Source: a phage. Taken from it: 64,000 nucleotides of DNA. The position numbers and the translations under genes are program-made. Position 1 is the first letter of the stretch. Each line of letters starts with the position of its first letter. Below are positions 18,620 through 23,838 of this stretch, one piece after another. Where the stretch lies: the sequence record PZ495249.1. One strand, 5' to 3'. Below the pieces are notes generated by a model. That model worked only from the letters and a program-made list of their open reading frames with translations, was not told the DNA's origin and did no database searches.

Positions 18620-18695
18620 TGGAGGCGGGAGCCGGAATCGAACCGACCTGCGACAAGCATATGAAACTTGTGAGTTCCCAGAACTCTATCCCGCA
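18620..18695 (-). tRNA. tRNA-Met (anticodon CAU)
   Basis: CCA encoded; T-arm GCCGG-AATCGAA-CCGAC; anticodon loop UUCAUAU; position 1-72 appears mismatched. Confidence 0.5.
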
Positions 18696-18699
18696 CTTT

Positions 18700-18775
18700 T
18701 GGTTGATAGTAAGAGAATCAAACTCTTCTCACAACGCCGTATGAAAGCGTCCGAAACATCAGCTTCACACTATCA
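18700..18775 (-). tRNA. tRNA with CAU anticodon (Met, fMet or Ile-lysidine)
   Basis: Perfect acceptor (TGATAGT/ACTATCA), T-arm AAGAG-AATCAAA-CTCTT, anticodon loop UUCAUAC. Confidence 0.5.
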
Positions 18776-18776
18776 A

Positions 18777-19040
18777 TTAAACACGATGGATTATTTTAAC
18801 TGTCTCACCCTTATCATTCATAAGGTAGGCACTTTCATTCCTATGAATAAAGTCCGTAGAGTTGCCACTAATGACACTTGCAATAACACCATCCAGCTTA
18901 TCATAACCTTCAAAATGATATTGGATGTGTATATTTCCATCAAGTTCTATATAATGTTCTTCTTCATCTACCTCGTAAGGTACTGAGTCATAAATTTTTG
19001 TCCCTTTGGGGAACTTGCGAACTATTTTCAATGTATACAT
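18777..19040 (-). CDS. hypothetical protein, 87 aa, inside the tRNA array
   Basis: ORF with good SD (GAAGGAAATACT-ATG); no recognisable motif. Confidence 0.4.
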   Translation of the reverse strand: MYTLKIVRKFPKGTKIYDSVPYEVDEEEHYIELDGNIHIQYHFEGYDKLDGVIASVISGNSTDFIHRNESAYLMNDKGETVKIIHRV

Positions 19041-19124
19041 AGTATTTCCTTCGTAGTGTTTATATTAGTAATATGCCGTCCCAAGCCGAACGGCGATTAG
19101 TGTTTTAGCTTGGCATTGATAATA

Positions 19125-19199
19125 TGGTACTTCCTGGAGGAATCGAACCACCGACGCTCACCTTGTAAGGATGACGTTCTACCATTGAACTAAGGAAGT
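19125..19199 (-). tRNA. tRNA-Val (anticodon UAC)
   Basis: CCA encoded; perfect acceptor ACTTCCT/AGGAAGT; T-loop AATCGAA; anticodon loop CUUACAA. Confidence 0.55.
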
Positions 19200-19272
19200 A
19201 TGGCGGGGATTTTCCGCACTGTCTATCGCGATATGGACTCGGACAGTGTTCTCGGCTAAATACCCCATTGTT

Positions 19273-19359
19273 TGGTACATCAGGTCAGACTCGAACTGAC
19301 ACGCCCTCACGAGCACTGGAACCTAAATCCAGGGCGTCTACCAATTTCGCCACTGATGC
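19273..19359 (-). tRNA. tRNA-Leu (anticodon UAG), type II
   Basis: 87 nt with long variable arm; T-arm GTCAG-ACTCGAA-CTGAC; anticodon stem CTGGA/TCCAG; loop UUUAGGU. Confidence 0.55.
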
Positions 19360-19367
19360 ATTTAATT

Positions 19368-19444
19368 TGGTGGAGAAGTGGAGAATCGAACTCCATACTC
19401 GAAGGTGCAAACCTCGTGTTTTAACCGAATATTACTACATCCCC
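19368..19444 (-). tRNA. tRNA-Ala (anticodon UGC)
   Basis: CCA encoded; T-arm TGGAG-AATCGAA-CTCCA; anticodon loop UUUGCAC. Confidence 0.45.
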
Positions 19445-19506
19445 AATTTGTATACACTACACAGAAGATAGGTCTGATTGCCTCGGCAGTTGCCGTAGTG
19501 TTTATC

Positions 19507-19582
19507 TGGTACGGATGGAAGGAGTCGAACCTCCGACGCAGGGCTTCGTAGACCCTCGTTCTATCCACTGAACTACACCCGT
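19507..19582 (-). tRNA. tRNA-Arg (anticodon ACG)
   Basis: CCA encoded; T-arm GAAGG-AGTCGAA-CCTCC; anticodon loop CUACGAA. Confidence 0.5.
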
Positions 19583-19588
19583 ATTGTT

Positions 19589-19663
19589 TGGTGCAGAGTG
19601 TTGGTAACGATCCAACCTGTGTGGCTTTTCAGACCACCACTAATCCATCTCAGTTAACTCTGC
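19589..19663 (-). tRNA. tRNA-Phe (anticodon GAA), non-canonical T-loop
   Basis: Perfect acceptor GCAGAGT/ACTCTGC; perfect T-stem GTTGG/CCAAC with loop TAACGAT; anticodon loop CUGAAAA. Confidence 0.5.
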
Positions 19664-19669
19664 ATAATC

Positions 19670-19745
19670 TGGTCAGTGAGAGAGGACTCGAACCTCCAAC
19701 AGCTACGCCCCAAACGTAACACTCTACCACTTGAGCTACTCACTG
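19670..19745 (-). tRNA. tRNA-Pro (anticodon UGG)
   Basis: Perfect acceptor CAGTGAG/CTCACTG; T-loop ACTCGAA; anticodon loop UUUGGGG. Confidence 0.55.
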
Positions 19746-19752
19746 ATAAATC

Positions 19753-21775: not shown

Positions 21776-21853
21776 TGGTCGGGGAGATAGGACTCGAACC
21801 TACATTTCCTCCATTACGCTATACGGCTTAGAAGACCGCCACGGTACACCCCG
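21776..21853 (-). tRNA. tRNA-like element (acceptor and T-arm present, anticodon/D arms not foldable by eye)
   Basis: CCA, acceptor CGGGGAG/CACCCCG (one mismatch), T-arm ATAGG-ACTCGAA-CCTAC; central region lacks obvious complementarity. Confidence 0.25.
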
Positions 21854-21880
21854 ATCTCTTAGTGCTGACTATAACATAAC

Positions 21881-22051
21881 TTATTCGTTACTGTCAAGCT
21901 CTTTTTTAATTTCTTTTCTTGCTTTCTGACGTTCAGTGGCTTTACACACTTCCTGCCAAGATTCGTACTCGTCACCTTTACGGTAGCCACGGCTACGACA
22001 AAGGGAGCAGAGACAACCTTCTTGACGATATTTCAAACCATGAGGTTTCAT
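21881..22051 (-). CDS. small Cys-rich ORF, 56 aa, hypothetical
   Basis: SD GGAGGATAT-ATG; MKPHGLKYRQEGCLCSLCRSRGYRKGDEYESWQEVCK...; below the supplied track cutoff. Confidence 0.3.
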   Translation of the reverse strand: MKPHGLKYRQEGCLCSLCRSRGYRKGDEYESWQEVCKATERQKARKEIKKELDSNE

Positions 22052-22065
22052 ATATCCTCCTTAAT

Positions 22066-22140
22066 TGGTGAGCATTACCAGATTCGAACTGGTGTCTTTC
22101 GGGTTTAGAATCCTACGCTTTACCGCTAAGCTAAATGCCC
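22066..22140 (-). tRNA. tRNA, anticodon uncertain; loop reads CUA (amber-suppressor-like) in the only canonical register
   Basis: CCA, acceptor with one G.U, perfect T-arm ACCAG-ATTCGAA-CTGGT, perfect D-stem GCTT/AAGC; anticodon stem has only 3 of 5 pairs; loop UUCUAAA. Confidence 0.3.
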
Positions 22141-22371
22141 TTCGTAAATGTCACGACTATCAGGATCGTGATACAATTCTGCAATTTCTTTACTTAAAGT
22201 AGCTCTCAGTATAATCCCTTTGTGCGAAACAATCAAGTAGATTTTCGTTTCACTTACATCTCCAGGGGCTAAGAGTTTACCTCTTACAATCCGCAAACGT
22301 TCTGCTGAATACCCTTCTTCGAGATCAGCCAACATATCTGCCAACGATTTAGAGAAAGTTAACCGATGCAA
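22126..22371 (-). CDS. hypothetical protein, 81 aa
   Basis: ORF between tRNA elements; weak RBS; its 3' end overlaps the tRNA at 22066-22140, so the call is tentative. Confidence 0.25.
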   Translation of the reverse strand: MHRLTFSKSLADMLADLEEGYSAERLRIVRGKLLAPGDVSETKIYLIVSHKGIILRATLSKEIAELYHDPDSRDIYEGHLA

Positions 22372-22672
22372 GGTATTACTTTCACGGTTTACAATTCCCC
22401 AGATACGATCATCCAGTTTGCAACTTCCTGACTCACAATTAGTCTATGACATTTTCGTTCTCCTGTTTGTTAATAAAACATATAAAGAAGGACAATGATC
22501 AGGTGACGTTTGCCAACGCCCTGCCGAAGTTCCGAAGATTGCAAGTCTTCGCTTGAACCGCATTTCATCAGGAGTAACGTATGATCAGTACGTTTTTCCG
22601 AAATGCTCACACCCCACGGTGCTGACAGTTTTAACACCAATCAATGCCTTTCTTTATATGTTCTGTCGATGG

Positions 22673-22746
22673 TGGAGGACGGTACGGGATTTTAACCCGT
22701 CTAAACTGGTTTGCAATCAGCCACATAGACACTCTGACAACCGTCC
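22673..22746 (-). tRNA. non-canonical tRNA-like element (anticodon possibly GCA, Cys)
   Basis: CCA; perfect 7-bp acceptor GGACGGT/ACCGTCC; perfect T-stem ACGGG/CCCGT with loop ATTTTAA; candidate anticodon loop carries TTTGCAA on the plus strand. Confidence 0.3.
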
Positions 22747-23005
22747 CATCGAAAAGCCAGTCTGTTCCTGGCTGTCACCACAGTTTTAACATTCTGTGGC
22801 TTGAACGTAGGAGCTATTCGATGCTGGCATTCTCCCGTAGCTCTGCCTTTATAGGGGTATGAACCCGTAGGGCGCACCTTATTGTTCCGTTCAAGGGATC
22901 ATGTTGAATGTTAACCTCTGCTTTTCCTTTAGGTTATTCGGAGAGGTACAACGATTGGGTTAGCGAAGCCCAAACACCTCCAGAGCAAACAACAATCTCC
23001 AAAAC

Positions 23006-23083
23006 TGGTGTGACTGGTGGGGCATGATCCCACATCATCTCCTTCACAGGGAGGAACGTTAACCAGCTTACGCTCACAGTCAC
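23006..23083 (-). tRNA. tRNA-His (anticodon GUG), non-canonical T-loop
   Basis: CCA; perfect acceptor GTGACTG/CAGTCAC; perfect T-stem GTGGG/CCCAC with loop GCATGAT; anticodon loop CUGUGAA. Confidence 0.35.
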
Positions 23084-23313
23084 CATTGTTTGTAGTGTCT
23101 CCAAGGCTTCCTATTCCATCCTAAGATGATCCACCCCTTCAACTAACGCGCTACATCCCTACGAAGAATGAACGTCATTCTCATCGTCTGAAATCTTGTT
23201 CAGAGCATACCACTGCGGAGATTAACCCGCTTCTCATCCTACGTGGTCGGTAGTAGTTGTCAATCAAACAACTCGTAAAATATATTCTCGTAAGAACACA
23301 TATTGCGAGAGTT

Positions 23314-23453
23314 TGGCACCAGGAGGAGGAGTCGAACACTCCTAATCAGGTCATGACTCCTGACTATCTCAAACCAAACACTGTTGTGTCGGCTATTGCA
23401 TAACAGCGAGCGCTCACTCCTATGCAGACCTTCACCAGTGTCGAGATCCTGGT
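23314..23453 (-). tRNA. atypical 140-nt tRNA-like element
   Basis: CCA-like TGG; perfect 7-bp acceptor pairing (23318-24 ACCAGGA with 23447-53 TCCTGGT); T-loop-like GGAGTCGAACACTCC; internal 5-bp helix AGGTC/GACCT enclosing about 74 nt. Confidence 0.25.
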
Positions 23454-23459
23454 ATTGTT

Positions 23460-23550
23460 TGGTACGGGTGACGAGATTCGAACTCGTAAGATCATCAAAG
23501 ACCTGGGGGATTTTAAGTCCCATGTGTACTGCCAATACCACCACACCCGC
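23460..23550 (-). tRNA. tRNA-Leu (anticodon UAA), type II
   Basis: T-arm ACGAG-ATTCGAA-CTCGT (perfect); 91 nt; anticodon loop CUUAAAA; acceptor with one U.G. Confidence 0.5.
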
Positions 23551-23558
23551 TTTATTTA

Positions 23559-23741
23559 TTATCGACGAAGAATATCAATCACTTCGCCAAGCAACGCACT
23601 GTACGCCGCATCTTCGAGAATATCCTTCTGGAGTTCACTGTCAATCCCTGTTACGCTCTCGACAGTATCTGTTACCGGAGATACAACATCACGAGCAACG
23701 CTGGTAACATCATCAAGCACTTCACCGATAAATCCGAACAT
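23559..23741 (-). CDS. small acidic protein, 60 aa, hypothetical
   Basis: Start moved to the internal ATG with strong SD (AAAGAGGAGAATATT-ATG); the longer track ORF would run into the tRNA at 23761. Confidence 0.35.
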   Translation of the reverse strand: MFGFIGEVLDDVTSVARDVVSPVTDTVESVTGIDSELQKDILEDAAYSALLGEVIDILRR

Positions 23742-23760
23742 AATATTCTCCTCTTTAAGT

Positions 23761-23838
23761 TGGTGGTTCCACCTGGTTTCGAACCTGGACACTCTCGGTT
23801 ATGAGCCGAGTGCTCTGACCTACTTGAGCTATGGAACC
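23761..23838 (-). tRNA. tRNA with CAU anticodon (third CAU species)
   Basis: Perfect acceptor GGTTCCA/TGGAACC; T-loop TTTCGAA; perfect anticodon stem CTCGG/CCGAG; loop CUCAUAA. Confidence 0.5.

Follow-up and report, generated by a model that had tools for sequence, protein, structure and literature searches.

The window, i.e. the whole 64,000-nt stretch of phage sequence record PZ495249.1 that was analysed, contains a large minus-strand cluster of tRNA genes (Table 1). The cluster consists of 23 tRNA genes found by ARAGORN, two found only by Rfam and one non-canonical Trp(CCA)-like gene, and it covers all 20 amino acids together with an initiator-like tRNA and a tRNA with the CUA anticodon, so that it would provide a near-complete decoding set. 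Small ORFs are interspersed among the tRNA genes. Upstream of the cluster lie the NAPRTase and PRPP-synthetase genes and downstream of it the terminase and portal genes, and a terminator-like hairpin immediately downstream of the last tRNA gene probably marks the end of the tRNA transcription unit(s). The phi92-like phages match the window in phage context and gene order, and the source is, judging from its sequence, a Stephanstirmvirinae-like (phi92-like) phage of roughly 145-150 kb.

Table 1. Features of the tRNA gene cluster in the window.
Feature	Position	Strand	Detection
Whole tRNA gene cluster (~26 tRNA genes)	18450..23838	-	ARAGORN and Rfam
Terminator-like G+C-rich hairpin, then T run	18321..18338	-	Consensus scan only
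tRNA-Ile(GAU), major Ile tRNA of the cluster	18450..18524	-	ARAGORN; Rfam (63.7 bits)
Trp(CCA)-like gene, non-canonical	18531-18613	-	
tRNA A, initiator-like tRNA(CAU)	18620..18695	-	ARAGORN; Rfam RF00005; homologs
tRNA B, putative non-canonical elongator-type tRNA-Met(CAU)	18700..18775	-	ARAGORN only
Arg (UCU) tRNA	21779-21853	-	Rfam only
Cys (GCA) tRNA	22676-22746	-	Rfam only
tRNA C, tRNA-Ile2-like tRNA(CAU), presumed lysidinylated	23761..23838	-	ARAGORN; Rfam

Three of these genes, designated A, B and C, were proposed in the first-pass annotation to carry CAU anticodon loops, and ARAGORN indeed called the anticodon CAT at exactly these three positions on the minus strand. Related phages carry all three genes at the corresponding positions, indicating that they are not chance matches, and exactly one of each class was found in all eight examined phage genomes that carry three CAU tRNAs.

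tRNA A scored 33.0 bits against Rfam RF00005 (gathering score 29). The 1-72 mismatch noticed at first pass was confirmed: U1 faces C72, which is the sole unpairable 1:72 combination among the 23 ARAGORN tRNAs of the cluster, the others being Watson-Crick or G-U pairs. The acceptor stem has G2-C71/C3-G70/G4-C69, U73 and an encoded CCA end, and the D stem has A11:U24/G12:C23, the pairs that discriminate fMet according to Silva et al. 2006 (PMC1635315). Among the determinants of the formylase, namely the 1:72 mismatch, G2-C71, C3-G70, G4-C69 and, as a minor one, A73 (PMC9976931), all except the minor A73 are present. The anticodon stem is C27-G43/A28-U42/A29-U41/G30-C40/U31·G39 with the loop UUCAUAU; inspection of its G-C pairs, suggested as a check on the initiator candidate, did not yield the canonical three, of which G30-C40 alone is retained. 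Shetty et al. 2016 (PMC5389676) demonstrated that the middle G30-C40 pair is sufficient for an initiator, and an au/GC/gu initiator mutant was able to sustain E. coli; the U31·G39 of tRNA A has the opposite orientation to the tested gu mutant. The nearest E. coli tRNA is metZ, and among curated phage tRNAs the best match is 'tRNAfM, initiator tRNA-fMet' from Salmonella phage 5 (AJ604531); the closest homolog is that of Citrobacter phage Tr1 (86% identity, compared with 73% for the T5-type tRNAfM). RNAalifold analysis of 10 homologs left position 1 unpaired and showed compensatory changes in 12 of 20 pairs, with G2-C71, C3-G70, G4-C69, A11-U24 and G30-C40 invariant. Of 80 unique viral relatives, 77 have a purine at position 29, and none has G at position 72. 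tRNA A is probably a member of a lineage of initiator-type tRNAs that is widespread among viruses.

In tRNA B the acceptor end shows the pair U1-A72, followed by A73 and an encoded CCA. Position 8 is G, the D loop of 6 nt contains no GG, and the T loop is UUUGAUU (U56). Of the nucleotides universally used for tertiary contacts, this tRNA lacks U8, A14, G18G19 and C56. The anticodon stem is G29-C41/C30-G40/U31·G39 with the loop UUCAUAC, and U4-A69/A5-U68 is the same as in E. coli metT. A11:U24 is also present in this tRNA. No match to Rfam RF00005 was obtained, and a search with 271 nt at E<=10 gave none either. Rejection of one gene as a pseudogene by a covariance model, an outcome considered in the first-pass annotation, is thus nominally seen for tRNA B: the generic model misses it, but comparative covariation shows a constrained tRNA. 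In five distinct homologs all 115 of 115 cells are paired (100%) and seven pairs are changed on both sides, which none of 500 shuffles equalled. Pair 1:72 is among those with compensatory changes (A-U in place of U-A), as is the elbow pair 19:56, which is A19:U56 in four of the homologs and G19:C56 in the fifth. The anticodon loop, A73 and the encoded CCA end have all been preserved intact. The complete pairing and the compensatory changes argue for a real tRNA rather than a pseudogene, and the whole pattern suggests a tRNA obliged to fold into the L shape and to be aminoacylated.

tRNA C scored 58.7 bits against RF00005 and has G1-C72, U4-A69, C5-G68, U12-A23, C29-G41, A73, an encoded CCA end, the loop CUCAUAA and a T stem with the mismatch A51·A63. 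The Tr1 copy shares 99% identity with tRNA C, compared with 71-73% for the T5-type tRNAI2 and for an ileX-like tRNA of a Vibrio phage. In an RNAalifold alignment of eight Ile2-type homologs including E. coli ileX, C29-G41, U12-A23 and C5-G68 are invariant; C29-G41, U12-A23 and A73 are elements recognized by E. coli IleRS (PMC9976931). The anticodon arm CUCGG-CUCAUAA-CCGAG is identical to that of Ile(GAU) of phage 5 except for C34, and differs from that of Ile(GAU) of Proteus phage Stubb at C34 and one more stem base. Comparison with the arm of tRNA-Ile(GAU) in the window, UUCGG CUGAUAA CCGAU, ties tRNA C to Ile identity. A point against the assignment is that C29-G41 is not universal in Ile(GAU) tRNAs of more diverse viral contigs, where it occurs in 16 of 33, versus 10% of other tRNAs.

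By sequence, the three genes sort into three distinct classes, for each of which there are reference tRNAs: A groups with the T5-type tRNAfM and C with the T5-type tRNAI2 and ileX-like phage tRNAs, which leaves B as elongator Met. This supports the initial reading of the trio as initiator, elongator Met and Ile2. We consider, with a probability of about 0.6, that A is an initiator-like tRNA, B an unusual elongator tRNA-Met and C a tRNA-Ile2, i.e. three functionally different tRNAs. Their charging, formylation, lysidinylation and use in translation are predicted from the observed genes, cloverleaves, conservation, covariation and identity nucleotides. All three would be processed by host enzymes. 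tRNA A would be charged by MetRS via the CAU anticodon. Through the unpaired U1·C72, together with G2-C71/C3-G70/G4-C69, it would become a target of the formyltransferase and avoid EF-Tu, and the retained R29-Y41 and G30-C40 would permit its use in the P site. tRNA B, with its paired 1:72 and A73, is most likely the elongator tRNA-Met in spite of its unusual structure, an assignment made largely by exclusion; since it has U4-A69/A5-U68 instead of C4-G69/C5-G68, the identity elements for E. coli TilS, it would keep C34 and read AUG. The C34 of tRNA C would be modified to lysidine by host TilS, after which the tRNA would be a substrate of IleRS via C29-G41, U12-A23, A37, A38 and A73 and would read AUA.

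Each of these assignments has a competing explanation. tRNA A may not be a working initiator: it may be a supplementary Met tRNA, one with a dual use, or the remnant of a former initiator now serving in elongation or in another role. The retention of just one of the three G-C pairs, U73 and the low Rfam score point in this direction, and a weak, pairable U1-A72 replaces the mismatch in 41 of the 80 viral relatives. As reportedly found by Seong and RajBhandary in 1987, a 1:72 base pair enables an initiator to act in elongation. Nevertheless, we regard this explanation as unlikely, because the U·C of the window's own copy is unpairable and unique in the cluster, the acceptor-stem determinants of the formylase and A11:U24/G12:C23 are all present and invariant in the homologs, and the experimental minimum of G30-C40 with a purine at 29 is retained. 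Moreover, a separate elongator-type CAU tRNA (B) adjoins A in all relatives examined except Tr1, which does not have B. It is still more improbable, by a clear step, that tRNA B does not decode but is a pseudogene in decay or an element resembling a tRNA (e.g. a processing signal or a decoy). The failure of the Rfam search and the missing tertiary nucleotides favor this explanation, as do the absence of tRNA B from the annotation of at least one relative (phage FKP3), the count of 18 tRNAs by tRNAscan-SE versus 25 by ARAGORN in phage 175008, and the annotated 'tRNA-like RNAs with unknown functions' in T5-type tRNA regions. Against these stand the fully paired four stems, the seven double-sided changes including the elbow pair, and the preserved anticodon loop, A73 and CCA end.

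Another explanation is that the Met and Ile2 roles are swapped, with B as the lysidine substrate and C as the elongator Met, or collapsed, with C not lysidinylated by host TilS and merely adding Met decoding. tRNA C carries U4-A69 where E. coli TilS prefers C4-G69, a dominant identity element (PMC12514573), and by raw identity C is marginally nearer to E. coli metT (0.67) than to ileX (0.65). In addition, tRNA B has A3-U70, and A3/T70 indicates Ile according to Silva et al. (PMC1635315). AUA is not enriched in the ORFs of the window (4.7 per 1000 codons versus 4.9 in E. coli), and this similar usage suggests that the trio is part of a full tRNA set and not codon compensation. The invariant Ile2-type pairs of tRNA C with A38, and its anticodon arm in common with Ile(GAU) tRNAs, argue against a swap, as do G29-C41, A12-U23 and C38 in tRNA B, whose 5:68 pair is A-U in the window copy and three of four homologs and whose 4:69 pair is A-U in one homolog. 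The GGUUC acceptor stem of tRNA C is also found in the curated T5-type tRNAI2, and the same-position tRNA in two Klebsiella relatives, phages phi1_175008 and FKP3, begins with GGCCC like ileX and has the full C4-G69/C5-G68. A swap or collapse is therefore quite improbable, only slightly less so than the decay of tRNA B.

E. coli likewise divides its CAU tRNAs into three, namely the initiator (metZ/W/V), the elongator (metT/U) and ileX (tRNA-Ile2). tRNA A shares the acceptor G2C3G4 and A11:U24/G12:C23 with metZ, tRNA B shares U4-A69/A5-U68 with metT, and tRNA C shares C29-G41, U12-A23, C5-G68 and A73 with ileX. However, tRNA A has U1·C72, U73 and one G-C pair where the E. coli initiator has C1·A72, A73 and three, and the anticodon loops of A and B have U32 with U38 or C38, whereas all three host tRNAs have C32 and A38. 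A blastn search with A and C against 5,426 E. coli genomes gave no match, and the identity between the phage and E. coli host CAU tRNAs is 57-67%, which speaks against a recent origin of the phage tRNAs by copying from the host.

T5-type and phi92-type phages were already known to carry the CAU trio, so that the finding, though real, is ordinary. The T5-type tRNA region (Salmonella phage 5, T5 and BF23; AJ604531) has curated tRNAfM, tRNAM and tRNAI2, and shares with the window a large tRNA cluster, small ORFs and several promoters, although the T5-type phages belong to Demerecviridae and have another gene order. tRNA A and T5-type tRNAfM have in common the U1 mismatch, G2C3G4, A11:U24 and A29-U41/G30-C40/U31·G39, but tRNA A has C72 and U32 and U38 in its loop, compared with U72 and the loop CUCAUAA in phage 5. 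The loop of tRNA B is identical to that of the curated tRNAM, although its D arm and elbow are non-canonical and the overall identity is just 44%. tRNA C and T5-type tRNAI2 (71% identity) share, besides the acceptor stem, the arm CNCGG-CUCAUAA-CCGNG.

We also compared the cluster with those of Stephanstirmvirinae, i.e. Justusliebigvirus (phi92-like, e.g. vB_Eco_PATM), the proposed 'Sichuanvirus' (Klebsiella phages phi1_175008, KP13-26 and FKP3) and Citrobacter phage Tr1. The gene order is as in the three Klebsiella phages and Escherichia phage PATM, with the Ile2-type tRNA adjoining Leu(UAA) at the upstream end, and Met (B), the initiator-like tRNA (A), the Trp-like gene, Ile(GAU) and then the terminase gene at the downstream end. 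Identity to the Stephanstirmvirinae copies is 88-96% for B, 99% for C (Tr1) and 86% for A (Tr1), and the window's phage is about 77-79% identical to any of these relatives over the structural genes. The combination is mosaic: the window's tRNA A is of the Tr1/T5/Vibrio type, phi1_175008 and PATM have a variant with a longer D arm, and KP13-26 and FKP3 have a different tRNA without A11:U24 at this position. The Stephanstirmvirinae records label all these genes plain tRNA-Met, or omit B.

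The tRNA gene cluster of the window comprises 23 genes detected by ARAGORN, all with an encoded CCA end (23/23). Three of them, here called tRNAs A, B and C, have CAT anticodons in the drawn cloverleaves and lie exactly where the first-pass annotation had placed three CAU tRNAs (see the table). We compared them with every CAU tRNA of nine phage loci, with the E. coli K-12 genes labelled "tRNA-initiator Met(CAU)" (metZ/W/V), "tRNA-Met(CAU)" (metT/U) and "tRNA-Ile(CAU)" (ileX), and with the curated but old annotation of the T5-type tRNA region of Salmonella phage 5 (AJ604531), where the corresponding labels are tRNAfM ("initiator tRNA-fMet"), tRNAM and tRNAI2. 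The CAU tRNAs of the nine loci and the references separated into three sequence groups. Since exactly one tRNA of each group was found in all eight of the examined phage genomes that carry three CAU tRNAs, the trio is a known and recurrent trait of phages that have large sets of tRNAs. The window has one gene in each reference-anchored class, which suggests that A, B and C are three isotypes (initiator, elongator Met and lysidine-modified Ile2, as had been proposed) and not three copies of one; these functional assignments use identity rules set for E. coli and homology to the old phage annotation. No match for A or C was found by blastn in 5,426 complete E. coli genomes, and the NCBI annotation of these genomes therefore supplied no independent isotype label.

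Features of the tRNA cluster, its flanks and other genes, by position in the window
Feature	Position	Strand	Detection
Portal gene	13136-14533		
Terminase gene	14804-16867		
tRNA gene cluster	18450-23838	minus	ARAGORN, 23 genes
Trp(CCA)-like gene	18531-18613	minus	no ARAGORN call; sole Rfam match tRNA-Sec, 26.8 bits, sub-threshold
tRNA A (CAU)	18620-18695	minus	ARAGORN; Rfam general tRNA model, 33.0 bits (gathering score 29)
tRNA B (CAU)	18700-18775	minus	ARAGORN
tRNA-Arg (UCU)	21779-21853	minus	Rfam, 33.7 bits; no ARAGORN call; anticodon read from the sequence
tRNA with CUA anticodon	22066-22140	minus	ARAGORN, label 'Pyl'; Rfam tRNA model, 60.2 bits
tRNA-Cys (GCA)	22676-22746	minus	Rfam, 42.1 bits; no ARAGORN call; anticodon read from the sequence
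tRNA C (CAU)	23761-23838	minus	ARAGORN; Rfam general tRNA model, 58.7 bits, canonical
NAPRTase gene	25245-26942		
PRPP-synthetase gene	27012-27911		
RmlB, RmlA, RmlC, RmlD (four adjacent ORFs)	46571-49852	plus	Pfam, E 1e-72 to 1e-81
Serine recombinase ORF	54006-54668	plus	Resolvase N-terminal domain, E = 1.3e-20

The closest DNA is that of the Stephanstirmvirinae, namely Klebsiella phages phi1_175008, KP13-26 and FKP3, Citrobacter phage Tr1 and the phi92-like Justusliebigvirus. The structural genes are at most about 77-79% identical to any record, and the phage therefore represents a lineage of its own in this subfamily. The cluster is flanked by the PRPP-synthetase and NAPRTase genes on one side and by the terminase and portal genes on the other, a layout identical to that of Escherichia phage PATM. 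The closest known systems are the phi92-like and "Sichuanvirus" phages, with tRNA clusters in the same order as in the window, and the T5-type tRNA region, with the same three classes in its curated annotation. This kind of feature is already known. What the window contributes is a new lineage and a mosaic of types, with A of the Tr1/T5/Vibrio type and B of the Klebsiella-phage type. Its value is mainly one of annotation, as the three "tRNA-Met" genes of the lineage deserve the labels initiator-type, elongator Met and Ile2.

For tRNA A, which has its anticodon in a seven-nucleotide loop (UUCAUAU), the first-pass annotation had noted a mismatch at 1-72. This mismatch is real: U1 lies opposite C72, followed by U73 and the encoded CCA, and it is the sole unpairable 1:72 among the 23 tRNAs. 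E. coli tRNAfMet also lacks a Watson-Crick pair here, but its bases are different (C1 opposite A72, as against U·C in A). The acceptor stem of A has G2-C71, C3-G70 and G4-C69, and position 73 is U, not A; the determinants of the formyltransferase are the 1:72 mismatch and these same three pairs, with A73 being minor (PMC9976931). The D stem (GAGU/ACUC) has A11:U24 together with G12:C23, the combination reported to tell fMet apart from both remaining CAU classes (Silva et al. 2006, PMC1635315). In the alignment of 10 homologs of A, acceptor pairs 2-4, the D-stem pairs 11:24 and 12:23, and G30-C40 are all invariant, and RNAalifold left position 1 unpaired, with compensatory changes in 12 of the 20 pairs.

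The canonical initiator anticodon stem has the pairs G29-C41, G30-C40 and G31-C39. Inspection of the anticodon-stem G-C pairs had been proposed with the first-pass annotation, and the expectation of three consecutive G-C pairs did not hold for A, where A29-U41, G30-C40 and U31·G39 leave the middle pair only, as they do in the curated tRNAfM of the T5 type. Mutagenesis showed that G30-C40 is the essential middle pair and is sufficient in E. coli, that an au/GC/gu initiator mutant supports E. coli from which the four initiator genes have all been removed, and that stacking of purines at 29/30 matters (Shetty et al. 2016, PMC5389676). A, with its middle G-C pair only, would be a natural example of this minimal initiator requirement. 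Two features speak against A as an initiator, namely U73 and the reversed orientation of U31·G39.

The identity of A is 86% to the Tr1 copy and 73% to phage 5 tRNAfM, 73-80% to the copies from Vibrio, Pantoea, T5-type and Proteus phages, and 76-86% to those from Pantoea, Vibrio and Citrobacter phages; the closest E. coli tRNA is metZ, at 57%. A has in common with the T5-type tRNAfM lineage U1, G2C3G4, A11:U24, R29, G30-C40 and Y31-G39. A pattern scan of IMG/VR detected the A-type motif in more than 120 viral contigs. Because the pattern fixed U1, A11, G39 and C40, these positions have no evidential weight, while 29 and 72 were free. Among 80 unique viral copies, 77 have a purine at position 29; at position 72 the counts are 41 A, 34 U, 5 C and no G. 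We infer that A belongs to an initiator-type lineage that is widespread among viruses, and that it would be used in initiation.

In KP13-26 (L009 8078-8155), FKP3 (L011 2425-2502) and an IMG/VR contig (L135 3586-3663), a different CAU tRNA occupies the position of A. It has the loop UUCAUAU and the AGU/GCU stem end of A, but its D stem has U11:A24, and its acceptor stem begins either with C1·C72 and G2·A71 or with A1-U72. Apparently, the initiator-type gene was replaced or remodelled in this lineage.

tRNA B gave no Rfam tRNA match in the 271 nt searched at E<=10, because the canonical tRNA core (U8, A14, G18G19 and C56) is absent; its cloverleaf has G8, C14, a D loop without GG, and U56. Despite the missing match, the possibility that B is a pseudogene was rejected on the covariation among five distinct homologs (the window, phi1_175008, PATM, KP13-26 and one IMG/VR contig), which align without gaps. 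Standard pairs occupy 115 of 115 cells of the cloverleaf, and at seven pairs both partners have changed. Five of these pairs lie in the acceptor stem (1:72, from U-A to A-U, among them), one lies in the anticodon stem and one is the tertiary pair of the elbow, A:U in four homologs and G:C in PATM. None of 500 shuffles matched the observed pairing and covariation, and sliding of the partners gave 32-54% pairing. A pattern for the T arm of B matched three contigs in IMG/VR, two of which carry B.

The 1:72 pair of B is U1-A72, replaced through the two-sided change by A1-U72 in KP13-26, and A73 is invariant among the homologs. An elongator that depends on EF-Tu requires a paired 1:72, and the compensated pair of B would fit such an elongator, in contrast to the mismatch of A. 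B also has U4-A69 and A5-U68, the same as metT (G5-C68 in one homolog), and it has G29-C41, A12-U23 and C38 in place of the IleRS elements; the dominant identity pairs for E. coli TilS, the lysidine-forming enzyme, are C4-G69/C5-G68, found in tRNA-Ile2 (PMC12514573). B and the curated tRNAM of the T5 type have the same loop, UUCAUAC. A11:U24 is present in B too, beside A12-U23, so this pair, being common to A and B, is not decisive alone. B is a real, non-canonical tRNA and, by exclusion and from these features, most likely an elongator Met.

The annotation of FKP3 does not include a B-type tRNA, and the missing core nucleotides are probably the reason for this as well. They may also be one contributor to the difference for phage 175008 between 18 tRNAs by tRNAscan-SE (PMC11726925) and 25 in the GenBank record of phi1_175008 and by ARAGORN. 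Several tRNAs of this subfamily go undetected by covariance models, and as tools of this kind miss B, the tRNA counts for these phages are too low.

tRNA C has the loop CUCAUAA, with A37 and A38, and has A73, U12-A23, C29-G41 and C5-G68, the first three of which are among the E. coli IleRS elements (PMC9976931). All four are invariant in eight Ile2-type homologs including ileX, with compensatory changes in 11 of 20 pairs. C29-G41 is present in 4 of the 23 window tRNAs and in every Ile-type tRNA listed from the phages examined. As a universal Ile marker this pair was rejected, since it occurs in 16 of 33 Ile(GAU) tRNAs of diverse IMG/VR contigs (background, 10%), and it was kept as host-lineage-specific evidence only. 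The anticodon arm, CUCGG-CUCAUAA-CCGAG, equals that of phage 5 Ile(GAU) save for C34; it departs from the Ile(GAU) arm of Proteus phage Stubb at one additional stem base and closely resembles the Ile(GAU) arm of the window itself. At the position of C, the tRNAs of phi1_175008 and FKP3 start with GGCCC, as does ileX. Raw identity did not discriminate (0.67 to metT, 0.65 to ileX). C4-G69 and C5-G68 are acceptor-stem pairs for TilS and IleRS in E. coli, and C has the second of them. The 4:69 pair, U-A in C, would count against Ile2, as E. coli TilS prefers C-G; U-A occurs in four of the eight homologs, including the T5-type tRNAI2, and C-G in the other four. Judged by its sequence, C is Ile2-like, and lysidine at position 34 and charging with isoleucine are predicted.

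Compensation for rare AUA codons was considered as a reason for C. AUA accounts for 4.7 per 1000 codons (7.3% of Ile codons) in 67 window ORFs, compared with 4.9 per 1000 in E. coli. AUA is no commoner than in E. coli, and codon compensation therefore does not explain C and was rejected. With the Cys, Arg and Trp-like genes counted, the cluster totals about 26 genes and covers all 20 amino acids. Such a full set, with AUA use no higher than that of the host, fits independence from host tRNAs, and the trio is more readily understood as one component of this complete decoding set, which is independent of the host. Positions 32 and 38 of A and B are unlike those of all three E. coli CAU tRNAs (A has U32), and it was proposed that loop changes let phage tRNAs escape anticodon nucleases (PMC10264068). 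The enteric VapC cleaves tRNAfMet between A38 and C39 (PMC4105405), and A has U38/G39 at this position. A fit of the loop changes in A and B to the escape proposal is speculative. We consider unlikely the broader reading that A represents a large phage-specific initiator class, defined by U1, by a 1:72 pair that is weak or missing and by R29-Y41/G30-C40 only, which isotype classifiers overlook because the three G-C pairs are lacking, and whose altered anticodon arm could sustain phage initiation when VapC-type or other anticodon nucleases cut host tRNAfMet. If it were true, the published view that tRNA-fMet genes are avoided by phages would in part be an artefact of how such tRNAs are classified.

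For the trio as members of a complete decoding set, we propose that the cluster would be transcribed from phage or sigma-70-type promoters, that host RNases would process the transcripts, and that the tRNAs would then work with host enzymes. A and B would be charged by MetRS via their CAU anticodons, A would be formylated by the formyltransferase, and C would be acted on by TilS and then by IleRS. A Pfam scan of the 30 larger ORFs of the window yielded no TilS, no formyltransferase and no other tRNA enzyme. Consensus scans detected a terminator-like hairpin after the last tRNA gene and 22 TTGACA-type promoter-like sites within the cluster, against 12.6 ± 3.1 in shuffled sequence.

The Trp(CCA)-like gene, located between A and tRNA-Ile(GAU), is conserved and non-canonical, having A1-U72, G73, an encoded CCA, an extra stacked pair, a long D-arm hairpin, a T stem of 4 bp and a C31·A39 mismatch. 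Each of the seven relatives examined has this gene; the hairpin differs in sequence from one to the next but can still form in every case. It is probably the sole Trp tRNA of the cluster. The tRNA with the CUA anticodon (amber-suppressor type) has two mismatches in the anticodon stem, A28·G42 and A31·C39, and its counterpart in the Klebsiella phage relatives is annotated as tRNA-Pyl; TAG is the stop codon in 7 of 67 long ORFs of the window. Five stretches of the cluster (20500-20737, 20896-21136, 22372-22675, 22747-23005 and 23084-23459) have no convincing ORF or tRNA call, and T-arm motifs resembling those of tRNAs occur in some of them (an example is GGTTCGAATCC, on the minus strand near 20980-21000). 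The annotation of T5-type phages has, in equivalent places, RNAs of unknown function that are labelled 'tRNA-like' or 'stable'.

Outside the cluster, the four adjacent Rml ORFs encode the complete dTDP-L-rhamnose pathway. In a distant blastn search, 101 records covered at least 80% of the Rml operon at about 70% identity, several of them annotated as such, which shows that the operon is conserved among Stephanstirmvirinae phages. It was not recently acquired from a host. The phage, otherwise lytic-looking, also encodes the serine recombinase domain listed in the table.
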